Below are positions 2 through 59,405 of a stretch of 64,000 nucleotides of DNA, one piece after another. The translations under genes were made by a program, and so were the position numbers. The notes under the pieces were generated by a model. It saw nothing but the letters and a program-made list of their open reading frames with translations, did no database searches and had not been told where the DNA came from. The stretch comes from Candidatus Marinacidobacterium sp. (lineage in GTDB: Bacteria; Acidobacteriota; Vicinamibacteria; Marinacidobacterales; Marinacidobacteraceae): positions 224,001-288,000 of the forward strand of contig OZ244852.1 in assembly GCA_965220965.1 (NCBI GenBank), given 5' to 3'. Each line of letters opens with the position of its first letter. Within the stretch, counting starts at the first letter, position 1.

Positions 2-583
2 GTGATGACCGGGGTGGACTACCTGATCGAACGCGGGATGGTGGACGGCGAGCGCATGGCCAAGATGGGGTGGAGCGCCGGCGGCCACATGACGAACAAG
101 ATCATCACCCACACGACCCGCTTCAAGGCGGCCTCGTCCGGGGCCGGAGCGGTGAACTGGATCTCGATGTACGGACAGAGCGACGTCCGCCACCCCCGGA
201 CGCCGTGGTTCGGGGGAACTCCCTGGCAGGAGGACGCTCCGATCGATGTCTACTGGGAGAACTCACCCCTGAAGGACATCTACCGGGTGACCACGCCCAC
301 GCTCGTGCTCGTGGGTGAGAACGACGCCCGGGTGCCGGCGCCGCAGTCCGTCGAGCTCTACCGGGCGCTGAAGACGAACGGGGTGGACACCCATCTCTAC
401 ATGGCGCCGCGCGAGGGCCACGGTTGGGCGGAGCTGCGGCACGGGCTCTTCAAGGTGAACGTCGAGATCGACTGGTTCGAGCGCCACGTGCGCGGCGTCG
501 CCTACGAGTGGGAAACCGCGCCGGGAGATGGCGGGAGAGCTACCGAGACGACGGACGACGAGAACGAGGCCGACCGGCGGTAG
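2..583 (+). CDS. S9 family (prolyl oligopeptidase/acylaminoacyl) peptidase, C-terminal part; 5' end outside window
   Basis: GWSAGG nucleophile motif, GENDARVP Asp, EGHG His. Confidence 0.9.
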   Translation: MMTGVDYLIERGMVDGERMAKMGWSAGGHMTNKIITHTTRFKAASSGAGAVNWISMYGQSDVRHPRTPWFGGTPWQEDAPIDVYWENSPLKDIYRVTTPTLVLVGENDARVPAPQSVELYRALKTNGVDTHLYMAPREGHGWAELRHGLFKVNVEIDWFERHVRGVAYEWETAPGDGGRATETTDDENEADRR

Positions 584-21490: not shown

Positions 21491-21498
21491 CGGCGCTA

Positions 21499-21716
21499 GC
21501 AGTCCGTTGACAAAGTCGCGTGCAGCGCCGAGAGCGGTGAGGCGCCCGGCCGACAAGGCGCGTGAGCGAGGAATATCGGGAATATTCCGAGTGAAACGCA
21601 ACGATGAGCGCCCCAAAGGGGCGCGGTTCGGGCGGGGCCAGTCCTCCCGGTGGGGGCCATCGCCGCTCGAGCCCCTACCGGGAGAACCGGGCCGCGGGAC
21701 TTTGTCAACGGGCTGT
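21499..21716. mobile_element. MITE copy 1 (218 bp), IS5-like ends, TA duplication in CTAG
   Basis: Terminal inverted repeats cagtccgttgacaaagtc / gactttgtcaacgggctg; flanked by TA; second copy at 30050-30246. Confidence 0.85.
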
Positions 21717-21720
21717 TAGG

Positions 21721-48377: not shown

Positions 48378-49637
48378 GTGGAATCCCCGGCCTCCGGCGG
48401 ACCCTGGTCCGCGATCGTCTCGCACGACACCTATCTCGAGGGCGTCCCCTGGGACCTCTTCGCCCGGATGCGCGCCGCCGGGAGCCCGGTGTGGGTGGAC
48501 GAGCCCGAAGGTTCCGGGTTCTGGGCGCTGACGCGCCATCACCAGGTGTTCCACGCCGGGTCGACGCCCCGGCATTTCTCCTGCGCCCGCGGCATCCGCC
48601 TGGAGGAACTCGACGACGAGGAGCTCGAGGCCCGGCGCACGATGATGGAGTACGACGGCGCCGATCACGCTCGGCTCCGGCGGCTGGTGGGCGCCGGGTT
48701 TTCCAGAAAGTCGATCGCCGAGCGGGAGGCGGCGGTCCGGGGGCTCGCCGTCCAGGTCGTGGAGCGCGCGCTCGAGGCGCGCGAGTTCGACTTTGTTTCC
48801 GCCGTCGCCCGCGAACTGCCGATCCGCATGCTCTGCCGGATGCTCGGCGTCTCCGAGGAGGACGCCGACGACCTCGTCGAGTGGGGCGACGCCCTCATCT
48901 CGAACGCCGACCCGGAGCTGTCGCTCGCGGTCGTGGATCAGGTCGACACCGAGGCGTTCCGGCTCCTGCCCTTCCGGAGCCCGGCGGCGGTGGCGGTATT
49001 CGACTACGCGAGCCGGATCCGCGCCGAGCGCCTTCGTCGGCCACGCCCGGACATCCTCTCGGGGATGCTCCACGCCGACGCCGGCGGCTCGCCCCTCACC
49101 GAGCTCGAGTTCCAGAACTTTTTCCTGCTGCTCATCGTGGCGGGGAACGAGACGACGCGCCACACGCTCTCGCTCGGTCTGCTGGCGCTTCTCGAACACC
49201 CCGAGGCGTTCCGCGACATGGTGAGCGACTCCGGGGAGCGCGAGTTCTCCGAATCGGCCACCGAAGAGATCCTGCGCTGGACCTCGGTGACGATGCACTT
49301 CCGGCGGACGCTCACCTGCGACCTCGACTACGAAGGGGCGCCGATGCGGGCGGGGGACAAGGCGGTCCTCTGGTACATCGCCGCGAACCGGGACGGCGCC
49401 GCCTTCCCGGAACCCGACCGGTTCGATCTGCGTCGGGATCCGAATCCCCACCTGGCCTTCGGGGCCGGGCGCCACTTCTGCCTCGGGGCCTGGCTCGCCC
49501 GGCTCGAGATCCGGGTCACGCTCGAGGAGCTCTTCCGCCGCATCCGGGGCGCGGAACTCACCGGGGCGCCCGACCGGCTGCGCTCCAATTTCATCCACGG
49601 GCTGAAGCGGCTCCCGGTCCGCCTCGAGCTTCGCTGA
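48378..49637 (+). CDS. Cytochrome P450 (CYP125/124/142-like)
   Basis: AGNETT, EEILR (ExxR), FGAGRHFCLG heme motif. Confidence 0.92.
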   Translation: MESPASGGPWSAIVSHDTYLEGVPWDLFARMRAAGSPVWVDEPEGSGFWALTRHHQVFHAGSTPRHFSCARGIRLEELDDEELEARRTMMEYDGADHARLRRLVGAGFSRKSIAEREAAVRGLAVQVVERALEAREFDFVSAVARELPIRMLCRMLGVSEEDADDLVEWGDALISNADPELSLAVVDQVDTEAFRLLPFRSPAAVAVFDYASRIRAERLRRPRPDILSGMLHADAGGSPLTELEFQNFFLLLIVAGNETTRHTLSLGLLALLEHPEAFRDMVSDSGEREFSESATEEILRWTSVTMHFRRTLTCDLDYEGAPMRAGDKAVLWYIAANRDGAAFPEPDRFDLRRDPNPHLAFGAGRHFCLGAWLARLEIRVTLEELFRRIRGAELTGAPDRLRSNFIHGLKRLPVRLELR

Positions 49638-52994: not shown

Positions 52995-53026
52995 GGGGAC
53001 GCGGCGAGCGCCGGTCTCCCGTCCCG

Positions 53027-53836
53027 TTACTTCAACAGGATGAACCGGCGATGGAGCGGCTGGACCGGACGGGCGTTCATCGGGTAGAGGGCCCGGAAGG
53101 CGTCGACCTGCGCCTGAGAGACGGCGATGGAGTCCGTCATCACGACCCAGCTCACGACTTCCGAACACGGCGGCGTGGTCAGCGAGCCGGCGTAGCGGAA
53201 ATAACCGCGTCCTTCGGGGAGGAAGGCGTTCAGGTCGATGCCGGTGAGCGGAGCAGGCGCCTCGTCGACGCCGGGGATGGCGTCCCAGACCGCCTGCAGA
53301 GCGGGATGGGCGTCGCCGGCATCCAGAAAGACGCCGATGACCGCGAGGTCTCCCTCTTCGGCCTGGTGGACGAAGTGGACCTCCAGGGGAAAGGCCGCGC
53401 TTTCGACGGTGTGCTCGCTGGGGGCGTGGAAGTGGAACTGGACGAGCGAGAACCGCCGCCCCTCGAGCGTGATCGAGCTTCCGGCCGACATGTTGACCTG
53501 GATCGTGTGTCCGTTGTCGATGACCTCGCCGTCGGTGGGCGCCCACTCGATGTCGAGCCCGCCGCCGCCGGCTGGAATCGCGCCCGTCAGGTCGATCGGG
53601 GACTGCTGGACGCCGGCGTCACAGATCGCGAACGAGGGGTGGAGGGCGCCCCACCGGTCCGGACCGATGTCCCCCTCGTAGCCCCAGTGAACCTCGGCGC
53701 TCTCGGCCTCCTCGGTGTGTTCCGCATCCATGGATTCCCCCTCGGCCGGGTCCGGCCCATCCGCCTGGCACGCTATCTGAGCGCCCGCCAGGCAGACGAT
53801 GGCGAGGCCCATCCGGATCGAGTGATGGTCTGTCAT
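53027..53836 (-). CDS. Alpha-class carbonic anhydrase, lipoprotein
   Basis: HWGY, QSPID, QFHFH, EH, EVH, GSLTTPPC, NARP; QIAC lipobox. Confidence 0.95.
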   Translation of the reverse strand: MTDHHSIRMGLAIVCLAGAQIACQADGPDPAEGESMDAEHTEEAESAEVHWGYEGDIGPDRWGALHPSFAICDAGVQQSPIDLTGAIPAGGGGLDIEWAPTDGEVIDNGHTIQVNMSAGSSITLEGRRFSLVQFHFHAPSEHTVESAAFPLEVHFVHQAEEGDLAVIGVFLDAGDAHPALQAVWDAIPGVDEAPAPLTGIDLNAFLPEGRGYFRYAGSLTTPPCSEVVSWVVMTDSIAVSQAQVDAFRALYPMNARPVQPLHRRFILLK

Positions 53837-53880
53837 GTTGCTCCTCCGCACACTGTGTCGACGGCCCGGCGCGCCGTTAT

Positions 53881-53994
53881 TCCGACGGCCTCACCGCGAC
53901 CCCCTCCTGGACGCTGTCGCCCGGGTAGACGATAACCCGGTCCTCCGCTTCGAGTCCCTCGAGCACCTGCGCTTCCCGCTGGTTGCGCTCGCCG
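53881..53994. repeat. 114-bp direct repeat, copy A (duplicated 3' end of efflux adaptor gene, with its own TAA stop at 53877-53879)
   Basis: 111/114 identical to 55005-55118 by manual alignment. Confidence 0.95.
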
Positions 53995-54000
53995 CGCAAC

Positions 54001-54291
54001 TCACTCGGCCTGCTCCAGTCGCTGGCGCAACGCCTCCGCTTCCAGCTCCAGCTCTTCGAGGATACGCGGAAGGATCTTCTGTTCCCGCTCGATCCTCAGA
54101 CTCGTGCCCACGCCGGTCGCCGAGAAGAACTGCTGCTGGTTCGTTCGCGCGCATTCCGGACACATCGCGACAAGGACCGCCAGGATGAGAAACGGAACGA
54201 GCGCGCCGGCGATCACCCAGTACTGACCCCCTCGCCGATAGCCGTCAAGAATGCGGCGCGCCAGACCGCGGGCCGCTTCGATCCGCCTCAT
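54001..54291 (-). CDS. Small orphan membrane protein (TM + coiled coil), paralog of 54288-54905 N-terminus
   Basis: ATGA overlap with upstream ORF; ARRILDGYRRGG-W, TM, TSLRIE, coiled coil. Confidence 0.65.
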   Translation of the reverse strand: MRRIEAARGLARRILDGYRRGGQYWVIAGALVPFLILAVLVAMCPECARTNQQQFFSATGVGTSLRIEREQKILPRILEELELEAEALRQRLEQAE

Positions 54292-54905
54292 GGCGTGAAG
54301 TCCGGCTCCGTCGGCGGAGCCCAGCCCATGCAGACCGCAACACACTCGGTCTGCCACTCGCCGTCCGGCCACAGCAGAACGGATCCGCCAGCCAGAACAC
54401 CTGCGTGGGGCCACAGCGTGCTCAACAACGTCGCGCCGGCCAGAACACCGGCCAGGGGGTACTTGACCTGCCGCCTTCGGGTGTCGCATCCCTTGCTGCA
54501 CCACGAATACTGGAGACCCGTATCCCCGATTGGCTCATAACGGATCGAAGCCTGTGGGTCAGAGTCGATTCCGGGAGCGCTGACAGATGGAGCGCTCGCC
54601 CCGTCCCACTGCGGTGGGCCCGGTGAGACTTCGGATGCAACGCCTGCGATCACTGCTCGCTCCCGAAGTTCCTCGATTTCGCGGGACAGGGATTCGACCC
54701 TGCGCCAGTCTTCCCGCCATTCGTCCTCCATACGAAGCGACGTGTTCATGGACAGGATCTGTCCCACAAAGCCACTGGCGAAGAACGATGTGAAGACCAG
54801 GCCCACTACCAGGAAATACGCGGTCGCCATCCAGGGTCGGCCAGACCGCCGATAGCCTGCGGCCATGCGCCTGGCGACCTGCCGCAATGAGAACCTATGG
54901 TTCAT
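54288..54905 (-). CDS. Orphan membrane protein with CxxxC-flanked AGVLAG hairpin
   Basis: ARRMAAGYRRSG-W, TM, TSLRME, coiled coil, CSKGC...AGVLAG x2...CVAVC. Confidence 0.65.
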   Translation of the reverse strand: MNHRFSLRQVARRMAAGYRRSGRPWMATAYFLVVGLVFTSFFASGFVGQILSMNTSLRMEDEWREDWRRVESLSREIEELRERAVIAGVASEVSPGPPQWDGASAPSVSAPGIDSDPQASIRYEPIGDTGLQYSWCSKGCDTRRRQVKYPLAGVLAGATLLSTLWPHAGVLAGGSVLLWPDGEWQTECVAVCMGWAPPTEPDFTP

Positions 54906-54997
54906 GGAATGTTGACGACGGTCTCGTCAGGAACGCAGCCAAGGCGATTCCACCGACAGTATTCCGTGTTTGGCGCTCGCCCCGGTGAAGGCCTCGT

Positions 54998-56227
54998 TCA
55001 CGGCTCCGACGGCCTCACTGCGACCCCCTCCTGGACGCTGTCGCCCGGGTAGACGATAACCCGGTCCTCCGCTTCGAGTCCCTCGAGCACCTGCGCCTCC
55101 TGCTGGTTGCGCTCGCCGATGCTGACGGTCCGCTCGCTCGCCTGACCGTCTGCGAGCACAAAGACGGCCCAGTCTTCCCCGCGGCGGAAGAGCGCGCCCA
55201 CCGGGACCTTGAGAGCGTCGTCGGTCTCCCAGACGACGACCCGGGTCTCCACCCGGTAGCCGTCGCCCAGACGGCTGCGCGCCTCGAACGGCTCCTCGAG
55301 CGCGATGACCACGTTGACGCGCTGCTCCTCGACGCCGAGCGCCGAGATCTTCGTGAACCCGTGGGGCTCCACCCGCAGGACGCGACCCTCGAGCGGCCGG
55401 TCGCCGCCCCAGCGATCCACCAGCGCGCGCTGGCCGGCGCGCATCCGCACGGCGTCGTTCGAGAGATAGTCGGTCACGACTTCGAGCTCCCGGGGATCTC
55501 CCACCTCGAGCAGGGGCTCGCCGGCGGGGACCACGGCTTCGCTCTCGCGCAGCCGCCGCAGCACGACGCCGTCGACCGGCGAGAAGATCCGGAGTTCCTC
55601 CGGATTCTGGCCGGGCGCGCTGTCGCGGGGACCGGTAACGCGGGCCGGATGGAACCGAAGCAGCCGGGCGCGCGCCGCGGCGAGGCGGCCCCGGGCGTCG
55701 CGGGCCGCGAATTCCGCCGCCTCGAGGGCCTCCTGCCGGGTGTCGAGCGCGAGCCGCGCGGCGTCCAGCCGGTCCGCCGAAACCACCCCGTCCTCACGGA
55801 GGCGGGTGAGACGGTCCAGCGTCGCCTGGGCGTGCGCCCGTTCGGCGGCCGCCTGCTCGTGCAGCGCTTCCGCCTGACCCACCGCGGCCTCCGCCGCCTC
55901 GACGGCGGCCTCCGATTCGGCGCGCCGGCGCGGATCCAGCGGGATCGGCGCGGCCGGCAGGAAGGCGGCGAGGATCGTTTCCCCGGCGAGCACCGGGTCG
56001 CCGGGTTCGAACTCGATGCGGAGAACCCGTCCGGCGACCGGCGCCGAGACCAGGAACCGGTCCCGGACCCGCGTTTCTCCCTCATCGTCGAGCGTGACCT
56101 CGAGCGGGCCTCGGACCACCGGCGCGAGCTCCACCGGAACCGGGCGCGGGCGGGAGGCGAGGGCGATGAGCGCCACGAGGATGAGTCCCCCGAGGCCCCA
56201 GACCACGAGCCGCCTTCGGTTCTTCAT
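54998..56227 (-). CDS. Efflux periplasmic adaptor (HlyD/MacA-like)
   Basis: VSAPVAG, SPVDGVVL, TKISALGVEEQRV. Confidence 0.9.
   Translation of the reverse strand: MKNRRRLVVWGLGGLILVALIALASRPRPVPVELAPVVRGPLEVTLDDEGETRVRDRFLVSAPVAGRVLRIEFEPGDPVLAGETILAAFLPAAPIPLDPRRRAESEAAVEAAEAAVGQAEALHEQAAAERAHAQATLDRLTRLREDGVVSADRLDAARLALDTRQEALEAAEFAARDARGRLAAARARLLRFHPARVTGPRDSAPGQNPEELRIFSPVDGVVLRRLRESEAVVPAGEPLLEVGDPRELEVVTDYLSNDAVRMRAGQRALVDRWGGDRPLEGRVLRVEPHGFTKISALGVEEQRVNVVIALEEPFEARSRLGDGYRVETRVVVWETDDALKVPVGALFRRGEDWAVFVLADGQASERTVSIGERNQQEAQVLEGLEAEDRVIVYPGDSVQEGVAVRPSEP
55005..55118. repeat. 114-bp direct repeat, copy B (within the adaptor gene 3' end)
   Basis: Matches 53881-53994. Confidence 0.95.
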
Positions 56228-56251
56228 TCGGTCTTCATCCTTCCCCGGTGA

Positions 56252-58618
56252 TTATTCCCGCGTCTTCAGGACTTCCACCAGGTCGAGACGGCGCAGCCGG
56301 TGGCGCACCAGGATGGCGGAGAGCGCGGTGGCGACCGCCACCGCGGCGGCCGACAGCGCGAAAGTGGCTGGCTCGGCCACCAGCGGCATGCGGAAGAGCT
56401 CCGTCTCGTAGGCGGCCAGCATTCCGGCGAGCATCGAGTAGCCGAGCGCCAGGCCGACCGGGATGGCGACCGCGGTCAGGACTCCCAGCTCGCCGAAGAG
56501 CACGACCCCGATCTCGGCGCGGGTGAAGCCCATGACCCGCATGCTCGCCAGTTCGCGGCTTCGCTCCGAAAGCGAGATCCGCGCCGTGTTGTAGATCACC
56601 CCGAAGGCGATCACCAGCGCGAAGAGGAGGTTGATCGCCATCGTGTTGCTCATGTTCTCGGCCACGAAGGTCTCGAAGTTCTCGATCATCGCGTGCTGAA
56701 GGGCAACGGCGGCGACGACCGGCATCGCCTTGAGAGCGGCGTAGACCGACTCCCGCTCCAGTGGATCGATCCCGAGCGCCGCCCCGGTGAGGTTCGCCGA
56801 GTCCTGGAGGAAGCGCTGGAGATCCTCCGTCTCCATGTAGGCGGAAACGCCCATCAGGTCGTCCACCAGTCCGCCGACGATCATGTCGCGCTCCGGGCGG
56901 GTTCCCTGGAGCGCCTCGACGCGGATCGTGTCGCCCGGCCGCACTCCGAGCGTCTCGGCGAGCATCCGGGAAAGGATCAGCCCACCGCCGTCGAGTTCGA
57001 CCGGCCGCGAGTCCACCCCGACGACGCGCATGAGCCGGGCGTCGGGTCGGGTCGCCTGGATCGCCACCTGCCGGCTGCGATTCCCGTGACGGAGCCGCGC
57101 GGGCGCGCCCCCGGTGGGCTCCACTTCGAGGATCCCCGGGAGCGCCGCCAGCTCGTAGGCGGCGGCCTGGCCCTCCGGCTCCACGAAGGTGACGGTGAGG
57201 TCCTGCCGCTGGACCACATCGAACTGGATCCGCATCAACTCCTCGATGGAGTCGAGGGAAGCGCCGGCGAGAACCATGATCGCGCCGGAAAACGCGATCC
57301 CGACGATGGACATCACCGCGCGGCCGGGACGCCGGGAGAGGTTCCGCAGGACCATCCGCGCCGGCTGGCTCAGCCACCGCCGCAGGCCCAGCCGTTCGAG
57401 CCACGACACGCGAAACGCCTCGGGCGCCGCCGGGCGCATCGCCTCCGCGGGAGGGAGCCGCACCACGCTGCGCACCGCGGTGGCCGCGCCCAGGGCGGCC
57501 GCCCCGCCGCAGGCGAGGAGGGCCGCCGAGATGTGCGCCCAGTTCCAGTCCGGGACGAGCGCCGGGAACCGGTAGTAGTCCATGTAGAGACCGAGCATCG
57601 CCGAGCTCAGGAGCGCTCCGAGGGCGATCCCGAGCGCGCCCCCGGCGACCGAGACGAGGATGGCCCAGTGCGCGAAGTGGGCGCCGAGGCGCGCGCTGGA
57701 GTAACCGATCGCCTTGAGAACGGCGATCTGCTCGCGCTGGACGGCGACCAGCCGCCGCAACACCACGTTCAGCAGGAATGCGGCGATCCCCAGGAAGATC
57801 ATCGGCAGAAGCAGCGCCATGCCGCGAAGCCCGGTGAGCTCGTTCTGGAGGTACCAGTTGGAGACCTGCTGCGCGCGGGGAATCGCGCCGAGGCCGCCGT
57901 AGGGCTCGAGGAGACGGTCCAGTTCGGTGATGGCCGGGCCGGCGGGCGCGCCCTCGGCGAGGGACAGCAGGATGTCGTTGAAGCCGCCCTCCATGTCGAA
58001 TGCGGTGGCGATGTGCTCCCGCGTCATCCAGAAGATCCCGAAGCGACGGGGATCGGGAATCAGGTCCCCGCCTCCGATCGCGTAGACGAACTCGGGCGAC
58101 AGGGCGGTCCCGACGATTTCGAGCCGCTGTCGCCGGCCGTTCAGCACCGCGAAGACGGCGTCGCCCGGCTCGAGGCCGTGCGCCGCCGCGAAGCGTTCGT
58201 TGACGAGGGTCTCCTCGGCCCGCTCCGGGTCGGGCCAGCGTCCCGAACGGAGCGTCAGGTCGTTCAGCGCCGGCCGGCCGCGGTCCGGGATCGAGATGAG
58301 CCTGCCGTTCACCGGTTCGCTGACTCCGGGCACGTCGAGCGTGACGCCGGCGACCACGCGGGTGGCGACGCGGTCCACGCCCGGGAGTCGGGCGAGTTCC
58401 GGAGTCACCCACCGGGGGACCCGCTTGGCCGACGCGAAGACATCGGCGAACGCCGCCCGCGCGTAGTAGCTGTCGCGGGTCCGCTCCAGCGTGTCGAAGC
58501 AGGTGAGCGACGCGACCAGCAGCGCGATGCCGGCGGCGACCACGACCGAGATGGCGAGCGCCATCGAGCGCATCCGCCAGAGGTCGCGGAACAGCTTGCG
58601 GTCGAGCGCCGGGATCAT
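56252..58618 (-). CDS. ABC transporter permease (MacB/FtsX-like, two repeats)
   Basis: QREQIAVLKAIG and ERSRELASMRVMG motifs. Confidence 0.9.
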   Translation of the reverse strand: MIPALDRKLFRDLWRMRSMALAISVVVAAGIALLVASLTCFDTLERTRDSYYARAAFADVFASAKRVPRWVTPELARLPGVDRVATRVVAGVTLDVPGVSEPVNGRLISIPDRGRPALNDLTLRSGRWPDPERAEETLVNERFAAAHGLEPGDAVFAVLNGRRQRLEIVGTALSPEFVYAIGGGDLIPDPRRFGIFWMTREHIATAFDMEGGFNDILLSLAEGAPAGPAITELDRLLEPYGGLGAIPRAQQVSNWYLQNELTGLRGMALLLPMIFLGIAAFLLNVVLRRLVAVQREQIAVLKAIGYSSARLGAHFAHWAILVSVAGGALGIALGALLSSAMLGLYMDYYRFPALVPDWNWAHISAALLACGGAAALGAATAVRSVVRLPPAEAMRPAAPEAFRVSWLERLGLRRWLSQPARMVLRNLSRRPGRAVMSIVGIAFSGAIMVLAGASLDSIEELMRIQFDVVQRQDLTVTFVEPEGQAAAYELAALPGILEVEPTGGAPARLRHGNRSRQVAIQATRPDARLMRVVGVDSRPVELDGGGLILSRMLAETLGVRPGDTIRVEALQGTRPERDMIVGGLVDDLMGVSAYMETEDLQRFLQDSANLTGAALGIDPLERESVYAALKAMPVVAAVALQHAMIENFETFVAENMSNTMAINLLFALVIAFGVIYNTARISLSERSRELASMRVMGFTRAEIGVVLFGELGVLTAVAIPVGLALGYSMLAGMLAAYETELFRMPLVAEPATFALSAAAVAVATALSAILVRHRLRRLDLVEVLKTRE

Positions 58619-58664
58619 GTCGACAACCGTGGCGCGCCCTCGCGCGCGGCGGAAAGGCGCCGGG

Positions 58665-59405
58665 TCACCACTGGACCGAGGAGGTCGCGGCGCGCGTGGC
58701 GTTGCGCCGCTCCCGGGAGATGCGGCCGTCGGCGAGCGAGACGACCCGGTCGGCGATCGCCGAGATCGCTTCGTTGTGGGTGATGATCGCGGTCGTCGCT
58801 CCGTATTCCCGGTTCACGCGCGCGATCGCCTCGAGCACCTGGACGCCGGTCGTCACGTCGAGCGCGCCGGTCGGTTCGTCGCACAGGAGGATATCCGGCC
58901 GTTTCGCGATCGCGCGGGCGATGGCCACCCGCTGCTGTTCGCCTCCGGACATCTGCGAGGGGAAGTGGTCGGCGCGGGGCCCCAGGCCGACGATGTCGAG
59001 CGCCTCCCCGGCGGGCAGGGGGTCGTCGGAGATTTCGGTCACCAGCTCGACGTTCTCGCGGGCGGTGAGCGAGGGGATCAGGTTGTAGAACTGGAAAACG
59101 AAGCCCACCCGGCGGCGCCGGTAGCGCGTCAGCGCGGTCTCGTCGGCCTCGGTCAGATCCCGTCCCCGGTAGAACACCTTTCCGGCGGTCGGGACGTCCA
59201 GTCCGCCGAGGATGTTCAGCAGGGTGGACTTGCCGCTTCCCGACGGGCCGAGGAGCACGACGAACTCGCCGTCCCGGAAATCGAAGCTCACGCCCCGGAG
59301 CGCGTGCACCTCGACCTCGCCCATCTGGTAGACCTTGGTCACTTCCCGCATCGAAACCGCGGGTTCACCGTTCCGGGAGGCGCGGCCGTCCGGGGACCCG
59401 CTCAT
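58665..59405 (-). CDS. ABC transporter ATP-binding protein (LolD/MacB-like)
   Basis: [26 protein letters not shown]. Confidence 0.93.

Follow-up and report, generated by a model that had tools for sequence, protein, structure and literature searches.

For the displaced 3' gene ends found in the effector-immunity arrays of the Vibrio cholerae type VI secretion system (T6SS), a model has been proposed in which incoming DNA is anchored by homology at one end and joined illegitimately at the other; the same idea, C-terminal displacement, is also mentioned for Rhs and contact-dependent inhibition (CDI) orphan arrays (PMC5361080). The subject of this study is a pair of overlapping open reading frames, ORF A and ORF B, located in a 64,000-nucleotide (nt) stretch of DNA from Candidatus Marinacidobacterium sp. 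(assembly GCA_965220965.1, contig OZ244852.1, positions 224,001 to 288,000; hereafter, the window) directly behind the genes of a MacB-like efflux pump. The best reading of this locus, made from its sequence, is that the pair constitutes a recently imported, promoter-less and translationally coupled two-gene cassette. The insertion architecture is of a known kind and the cargo is without known relatives; the newness of the pair consists in the absence of detectable relatives rather than in a demonstrated mechanism.

The predicted products may also be set beside several well-described protein families. Class II bacteriocins present GxxxG motifs and disulfides and are exported by ABC transporters. 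FtsB and FtsL typify small bitopic proteins with a cytoplasmic amino terminus (N-in) that associate in pairs through a periplasmic pairing helix. The T4 holin T and antiholin RI, as well as the lambda Rz i-spanin, are N-in single-pass proteins with a periplasmic helical part and cysteines; unlike ORF A and ORF B, T and RI are not known to be paralogous. The small Tim proteins of mitochondria are built on a twin CX3C helix-loop-helix. At the level of the neighbouring pump, coiled-coil partners are known to dock on transporters of the FtsEX type.

The pair is bracketed by a 114-nt direct repeat. An earlier note on this DNA, made by a model from the letters and a list of open reading frames, is silent on this feature. 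One copy (R) is the end of the intact HlyD-family adaptor gene that precedes ORF A, and the other (R') is a second, orphan end of that gene downstream of ORF B. The copies are 97.4% identical (3/114 mismatches) with a spacing of 1,124 nt, and no third copy was found in the genome. The intervening 1,010 nt hold ORF A and ORF B only. R' starts 7 nt past the ORF B stop codon and keeps the adaptor reading frame; roughly 40 nt past its own stop codon lie a GGAGGAG Shine-Dalgarno sequence and the start of a carbonic anhydrase gene. The composition of the insert is distinct, with a GC content of 0.61–0.66 versus 0.71 for the genome, and a GC content at third codon positions (GC3) of 0.72 for ORF A and 0.78 for ORF B versus 0.87–0.92 in neighbouring genes.

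This arrangement may be explained by homology-facilitated illegitimate recombination, that is, by C-terminal displacement. Donor DNA would have paired by homology with the macA-like adaptor gene, which would have served as the anchor, and the other end would have been joined illegitimately 114 nt before the adaptor stop codon. The adaptor gene would now end in the incoming copy R, with its former end R' pushed 1,124 nt downstream. Since the repeats have diverged by 2.6%, compared to adaptor genes that are approximately 76–77% identical among same-genus species, the event is recent. An orphan copy of the 3' end of the upstream gene is present downstream of the insert, the site is empty in two same-genus genomes (G001 and G002), and the genes scanned within and around the insert include no recombinase.

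The locus resembles the Vibrio T6SS arrays (PMC5361080) in having a conserved upstream gene as the homologous anchor, a module that brings its own gene end and leaves the resident 3' end orphaned downstream, no integrase or transposase, and an empty site in relatives. It differs from them in that the anchor is a housekeeping efflux adaptor gene instead of a toxin gene whose C-terminus varies, and in that the displaced piece has no new coding content. Furthermore, the cargo cannot be recognised as an effector-immunity pair, and no donor was identified.

Two other mechanisms were considered and are not supported. An integrative element with attachment (att) sites in the 3' end of a gene does not fit, as there is no integrase or excisionase and the 1,010 nt hold only ORF A and ORF B. 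A variable repeat/template repeat pair of a diversity-generating retroelement was rejected, given that the three mismatches (A/G, G/A and A/G) are mixed in direction with no adenine bias and that there is no reverse transcriptase nearby. Among the scanned genes between positions 49601 and 63920, no integrase, transposase, recombinase or reverse transcriptase domain was found, and a tRNA scan of the region returned none. Judged against three outgroups, two of the three repeat changes are located in the orphan copy R' and one in the functional copy R; with so few changes, the event cannot be polarised.

The arrangement of R, ORF A, ORF B and R' is not an assembly artefact. In both sequencing runs (X1 and X2), the unique 1,107-nt piece is as deep as its flanks and the repeat core about twice as deep. 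In run X1, the unique piece has a depth of 99.8 between flanks of 99.7 and 108.9, and the repeat core has a depth of 200. In run X2, the repeat core has a depth of 11 versus 5.3. No variant without the insert is listed in either run.

The genome (3.25 Mb, 71% GC) is rich in long spurious ORFs; thus, an open frame alone is little evidence of a gene. The case for ORF A and ORF B is made by their relationship to each other. The earlier note had described them as paralogous and coupled by an ATGA junction, and both observations were borne out. Bases 54288–54291 are common to the TGA stop codon of ORF A and the ATG start codon of ORF B, and the two proteins match by BLASTP (E 6e-6), with the similarity confined to the annotated frame. 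In a comparison with all 35,819 six-frame ORFs from the genome, ORF A and ORF B match just one another (E 0.002), and there is no third match to either one up to an E-value of 10. From 36 frame pairings, the annotated frames score 37.7 bits in a collinear alignment (residues 8–83 versus 8–91), the exact antisense frame pair scores 23.9 bits, and all other pairings score 20.8 bits or less. No significant similarity between the two genes was detected by blastn at the DNA level, where the top match is an 11-nt word (E 0.07). Different codons are used at 15 of the 33 identical aligned residues, including TCG versus AGT for serine, and at four identical residues the codons differ at two or three bases. 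Over 82 aligned codons, identity at positions 1, 2 and 3 is 0.52, 0.56 and 0.38, respectively, making the third position the least conserved. The pair thus goes back to an old duplication, after which the two copies diverged under protein-level selection in the annotated frame.

Composition provides a second line of evidence. For an amino-acid composition log-odds score, 790 confident genes and 9,092 wrong-frame ORFs from this genome served as the training sets. ORF A and ORF B score +0.18 and +0.25 per residue, which correspond to the 40th and 76th percentiles of the 790 genes, and none of the 9,092 wrong-frame ORFs exceeds the score of either one. The scores of the four ORFs that compete with them for this DNA range from -0.14 to +0.05. 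The GC content at codon positions 1, 2 and 3 is 0.62, 0.55 and 0.72 in ORF A and 0.71, 0.44 and 0.78 in ORF B, so that both follow the order GC3 > GC1 > GC2. Taken together, ORF A and ORF B both look like real coding genes, with reservations about ORF A that are weighed below.

On reading both translations, all of the motifs quoted in the earlier note were found. At the amino terminus, RQVARRMAAGYRRSGRPW in ORF A corresponds to RGLARRILDGYRRGGQYW in ORF B, followed by TSLRMEDE and TSLRIERE, respectively; ORF A contains CSKGC, two copies of AGVLAG, and CVAVC, and ORF B contains CPEC. Conserved between the two proteins is a GYRRxGxxW element that precedes the membrane helix, and past this helix come TSLR(M/I)E and an amphipathic helix. 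The CPEC motif of ORF B falls in an 11-residue stretch that ORF A lacks. Each protein begins with an Arg-rich segment of 23–25 residues and continues into a hydrophobic anchor of 21–27 residues, which looks uncleaved in ORF A. Kyte-Doolittle maxima over 19 residues are 1.98 for ORF A and 2.81 for ORF B, values attained by 1.4% and 0.08% of spurious ORFs, respectively. Since both proteins have six Arg in the approximately 24 residues before the hydrophobic stretch, the positive-inside rule predicts a cytoplasmic amino terminus with the remainder facing outward.

An AlphaFold2 calculation on ORF A, made with no alignment, placed helices at residues 7–20 and 24–86 with modest confidence, followed by a disordered region (88–119) with a predicted local distance difference test (pLDDT) score below 50. 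The carboxy terminal head of 85 residues presents, in order, a possible beta-hairpin, CSKGC, a basic stretch, the GxxxG segments and CVAVC. The two GxxxG segments are each 14–17 residues in length and bounded by Trp-Pro; both AGVLAG segments owe their presence to an internal 16-codon duplication, of which the 25-nt cores (54386–54410 and 54434–54458) are 84% identical with a spacing of 48 nt. Thus, of the architecture proposed in the earlier note, the paralogous proteins with a predicted N-in single transmembrane helix and a following helix were upheld. For the tail, AlphaFold2 gave no confident structure (mean pLDDT 49.6).

From these features, both proteins are predicted to be N-in, C-out single-pass proteins of the inner membrane. 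No terminator-like sites and no sigma-70-like promoter sites were found on scanning positions 53000–56500, and expression would most likely be by read-through from the pump operon. ORF A and ORF B may pair through their common part, comprising GYRRxGxxW, the transmembrane helix, TSLR(M/I)E and the helix that follows. ORF A would then hold a small hydrophobic periplasmic head on a flexible linker of about 35 residues. With its two GxxxG segments located between two CxxxC motifs, the head could be pinned by two disulfides. ORF B, which is headless and would place a CxxC motif at the membrane surface, may act as a partner or regulator. A structure prediction of ORF A(1–100) in complex with ORF B had a score of 0.03, below the mark of 0.34, and is read as evidence neither for nor against pairing. 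As to function, the most likely guess from the sequence is a hetero-oligomeric, envelope-acting accessory role of the kind carried by mobile DNA.

The head of ORF A is reminiscent of the small Tim proteins in that two CxxxC motifs could pin an antiparallel hairpin by two disulfides in an oxidising compartment. Unlike the small Tim proteins, the ORF A motifs are about 55 residues apart, the hairpin is hydrophobic and glycine-rich, and there is no sequence relation; furthermore, the structure of the ORF A tail in this comparison is not confidently predicted by AlphaFold2. The pair as a whole resembles FtsB and FtsL in being two related small N-in single-pass proteins that are encoded together and have a periplasmic helix each. 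In contrast to FtsB and FtsL, neither protein has a DivIC/FtsL match in Pfam or NCBIfam, ORF A has an extra linker and a cysteine-rich head, and the pair is lineage-specific and not universal, with no credible match in 40 relatives and 400 other genomes of the phylum.

Searches for relatives were extended to protein, genome, metagenome and viral collections. A word-indexed search of 5.8 billion proteins produced 904 candidates for ORF A, none at E <= 0.01, and the sole match to ORF B was ORF B itself, as was the case when a profile of both proteins was used. An exhaustive phmmer search of ORF A against 1,835,955,588 cluster representatives gave nothing at E <= 0.001, and no usable match to either protein was found in the ESM Atlas. 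The best matches to unrelated families were E 0.092 (ORF A) and 0.12 (ORF B) in Pfam, and E 0.088 and 0.057, respectively, in NCBIfam. No PHROGs family was matched by ORF A and just one (phrog_20468, of unknown function, E 0.017) by ORF B; PADLOC returned 0 families for either protein at E-values up to 1, PDB sequences contained no significant match, and an Rfam scan of the region found nothing. When the insert DNA was compared with 54 further genomes from the order, just chance matches of 35–44 nt were obtained. No relative of ORF A or ORF B was found in viral contigs, and of 220 pattern matches in metagenome contigs, none was confirmed.

Several weak candidates were examined and rejected. 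Three six-frame matches to ORF A in the 40 relatives (E 0.001–0.008) involve its low-complexity linker and lie inside long unrelated frames. Five six-frame matches to the profile (E 0.003–0.009) are about what chance would produce over the 400 genomes from elsewhere in the phylum. In genome contigs, there were 65 pattern matches and one tblastn match that spans 16 residues only.

The statement in the earlier note that the family was not recognisable is in agreement with these blank results, and its description of ORF A and ORF B as paralogous orphan membrane proteins is supported. Its suggestion that the shared amino terminus may head a family with variable C-termini found no further member in any of these collections. 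The note had also named findings that would speak against its proposal: homologues are indeed absent, whereas codon-level conservation is present between ORF A and ORF B. Overall, what the earlier note observed is confirmed and what it made of those observations is partly supported. An exhaustive search of 1.8 billion protein clusters thus returned nothing for a pair that is marked by long protein-level selection, which means that the mobile genes of this poorly cultured lineage have been sampled only in part.

The statement that ORF A and ORF B are real genes, recently imported, N-in and bitopic in topology, and probably paired is given a probability of roughly 45%. A number of results weigh against it. 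On short-read unitigs alone, the integrated form is indistinguishable from a combination of an empty site and an equal-copy 1.1-kb circle; the equal depth and the long assembled contig argue for integration. The import model predicts a closely related donor with the gene order adaptor, ORF A, ORF B, and none was found in the genome, metagenome and viral contigs searched. As no relative was found, there is no between-species conservation to draw upon. ORF A is missing even as itself from protein collections in which ORF B is present, indicating that the gene caller behind them passed over ORF A. It has no clear Shine-Dalgarno sequence at its 5' side, its residues 96–135 have a weak coding statistic (GC3 of 0.60), and its residues 136–205 have a composition score at the 3rd percentile of real genes. 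Recognition values from a protein language model are 1735 and 1793, compared to a value of 2300 that is reached by 91 in 100 known-family proteins. The AlphaFold2 model of ORF A has a mean pLDDT of 55.3 (49.6 for the last 91 residues alone), values too low for a fold search, and its confidence is low outside the amino terminal helices.

Several of these observations are what would be expected if the insert were imported DNA without function in its host, in which the ORFs are silent or decaying passengers or ORF A is no gene at all. The failure of a pipeline that called ORF B to call ORF A, the atypical codon usage, the missing Shine-Dalgarno sequence, the weak coding statistics in the linker and tail of ORF A, and the lack of relatives may all be read in this manner. 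However, both frames are intact and the ATGA junction is kept, and the frame-specific paralogy along with the third-position excess of change shows long protein-level constraint. The insert is young (3/114 differences between the repeats), so that decay has had little opportunity to set in, and neither a frameshift nor a stop codon can be seen. This explanation is considered unlikely.

With the pair taken as an imported cassette of coding genes, its function may be considered. The earlier note had proposed a toxin-like precursor with a truncated partner. In this scheme, ORF A would be a membrane-tethered precursor of a membrane-active toxin that harms membranes through its disulfide-closed GxxxG hairpin, the headless ORF B would neutralise it, and the MacB-like pump would export it. 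A coupled, horizontally acquired two-gene cassette with fast-evolving orphan sequence is typical of toxin and immunity pairs, the insertion architecture is as for the effector-immunity modules described in PMC5361080, and ORF A carries GxxxG segments and paired cysteine motifs. The likeness to class II bacteriocins is found in these same GxxxG hydrophobic segments and paired cysteines together with the adjoining ABC exporter. However, no bacteriocin, toxin, immunity or defence family was matched (Pfam and NCBIfam E > 0.05; PADLOC, 0; PHROGs, 0 for ORF A), and neither protein has a match to a bacteriocin or lantibiotic precursor family in Pfam or NCBIfam. A reading of both sequences identified no cleavable leader, with neither a GG (double-glycine) motif nor a small-x-small site after the anchor. 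Instead of a leader, ORF A starts with 25 cytoplasmic residues that lead into a long anchor; in all, a membrane anchor of 50 residues and a coiled coil precede its tail. For transmembrane helices, the GxxxG segments lack both the length and the hydrophobicity, having a hydropathy of approximately 1.1 (a hand calculation over 19 residues), below the usual membrane-helix level and compared to 1.98 for the ORF A anchor. The pump genes match generic ABC, FtsX and HlyD domains only, and the exporter and putative precursor do not travel together, since the three relatives examined (G001, G002 and G003) have kept the pump without ORF A or ORF B. No finding speaks positively for the toxin/immunity and bacteriocin reading, which is regarded as improbable.

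The topology of the pair and the sizes of its members (about 200 and 100 aa) resemble T4 T/RI and the i-spanins. With the lower GC content of the foreign DNA in mind, ORF A and ORF B could be the remnant of a phage lysis or exclusion system, either as a class III holin with its antiholin or as a spanin-like membrane-spanning protein. In contrast to those proteins, neither one matches a phage-lysis family in PHROGs and there are no lysis genes near the pair; the single hit of ORF B to a family of unknown function is the only PHROGs result. Viral contigs contain no relative of either protein, and among the scanned neighbours, there is no endolysin, integrase or other phage gene. A phage origin of this type is very unlikely.

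The pair lies directly downstream of a MacB-like exporter on the same strand, as the earlier note described, with ORF A starting 92 nt past the HlyD-family adaptor gene. This may suggest that ORF A and ORF B are dedicated accessory subunits or a substrate of the MacB-type pump that dock on its permease or adaptor. No terminator-like site separates them from the adaptor gene, and the import model implies that in the donor, too, the pair was directly behind an adaptor gene. However, the ATPase-permease-adaptor operon (54998–59405) is kept at 75–79% amino acid identity in the three relatives that lack the pair, and the junction behind it is variable. By tblastn against G001, residue 404 of the adaptor maps to 3455 and residue 20 of QueG to 3492, such that the adaptor runs straight into queG. 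In G002, a gap of approximately 290 nt separates the adaptor gene from queG. In G003, a different gene of 418 aa follows the adaptor with an ATGA overlap, and in the window, the carbonic anhydrase gene is found beyond the pair. The adjacency of pair and pump is accounted for by the insertion mechanism, and nothing beyond adjacency ties them. Since the operon persists without the pair and the pair lies in a recent insert, a functional link to the exporter is not supported, and an accessory role for the pair in this pump is very unlikely.

The carbonic anhydrase gene, which in the window lies between R' and queG, is itself absent from the junction in the same-genus genomes, with homologues of about 50% identity located elsewhere in G001 and G003, and is thus an earlier insertion at the same place. 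The junction behind the adaptor gene therefore gained the carbonic anhydrase gene first and ORF A and ORF B later, which marks it as a hot spot of gene gain. The features of the locus are collected in Table 1.

Table 1. Features of the ORF A/ORF B locus and its surroundings (window positions, unless residues are given).
Feature	Position	Strand	Remarks
Carbonic anhydrase gene, alpha-type	53027-53851 (probable start 53836)	minus	Carb_anhydrase, E 2.9e-40
Repeat copy R', displaced orphan adaptor gene end	53877-53994	minus	repeat part 53881-53994; own in-frame TAA 53877-53879
ORF B	54001-54291	minus	96 aa, ATG start; truncated paralogue of ORF A
ORF B, predicted parts			Arg-rich N-terminus, transmembrane helix, CPEC at outer end of helix, TSLRIERE, amphipathic helix
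ORF A	54288-54905	minus	205 aa, ATG start
ORF A, predicted part	residues 1-25		Arg-rich, cytoplasmic
ORF A, predicted part	residues ~26-50		transmembrane helix
ORF A, predicted part	to residue ~86		TSLRMEDE and helix
ORF A, predicted part	residues ~88-119		Pro/Ser/Ala linker
ORF A, predicted part	C-terminal ~85 aa		CSKGC, two AGVLAG (GxxxG) segments, CVAVC
Internal tandem duplication in ORF A	54386-54458	minus	16 codons (48 nt); repeat family D6
Spacer, adaptor stop codon to ORF A start	54906-54997	minus	92 nt
HlyD-family adaptor gene (macA-like)	54998-56227	minus	domain scan
Repeat copy R, last 38 codons of intact HlyD-family adaptor gene	55005-55118	minus	114 nt
Double-FtsX permease gene	56252-58618	minus	domain scan
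ABC ATPase gene	58665-59405	minus	domain scan
AAA_16/STAND-like NTPase gene, 408 aa	59407-60633	same strand	directly upstream of ABC ATPase gene

A genome-wide search for orphan gene ends was made to identify further scars of this type. The search was noisy, dominated by tandem paralogues and missed one known case, and the two further candidates that it produced are not an exhaustive set. In the first of these, 114 nt at G000:C1 2822306–2822419 and 2821873–2821986 of the same genome (locus L025, 1574–2120) are 95.6% identical and repeat exactly the last 38 codons and the stop codon of a DAO-family oxidoreductase gene. Between the copies is a convergent ORF of 89 aa without a Pfam match. Since G001 contains a partial homologue of this ORF in the corresponding position, the block is not a lineage-specific import. 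The equal length of 114 nt at this scar and at the ORF A/ORF B locus may be due to chance.

A more specific proposal would give this coincidence some meaning. ORF A and ORF B may be the first members of an unsampled family in which a hydrophobic hairpin, tethered to the membrane and stapled by disulfides (ORF A), is restrained by a headless paralogue (ORF B), the two forming a self-contained, integrase-free mobile effector-regulator cassette of the envelope that enters the ends of conserved operons. If so, the second exact 38-codon scar (G000:C1 2821873–2822419) would hint at an insertion process that is measured and not random. The probability of this proposal is judged to be small.

In the second candidate (locus L026, G000:C1 2595140–2596694), 122 nt close to the 3' end of a gene for a double-AAA ATPase recur 1,434 nt downstream with 85% identity. 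The two copies enclose an orphan gene of 404 aa that has no Pfam match, and a PD-(D/E)XK-like gene then follows. This locus may have arisen in the same manner at an earlier date.

Other repeats were encountered in the genome. A 2,142-nt element is present in two copies (G000:C1 1459115–1461256 and 2291937–2294078) that are 99.8% identical; it was considered as a long target duplication and rejected, given that the first copy is an insertion inside a CRISPR-like array with a period of about 75 nt. Within the window, positions 21494–21719 (G000:C1 245494–245719) belong to an interspersed repeat of approximately 220–240 nt that has at least 10 copies in the genome with 87–98% identity. Lastly, tandem repeats with a period of 285 nt and 92–97% identity form a very large array that extends over many kilobases at about G000:C1 1205000–1228000 and is probably a giant repeat-protein gene.

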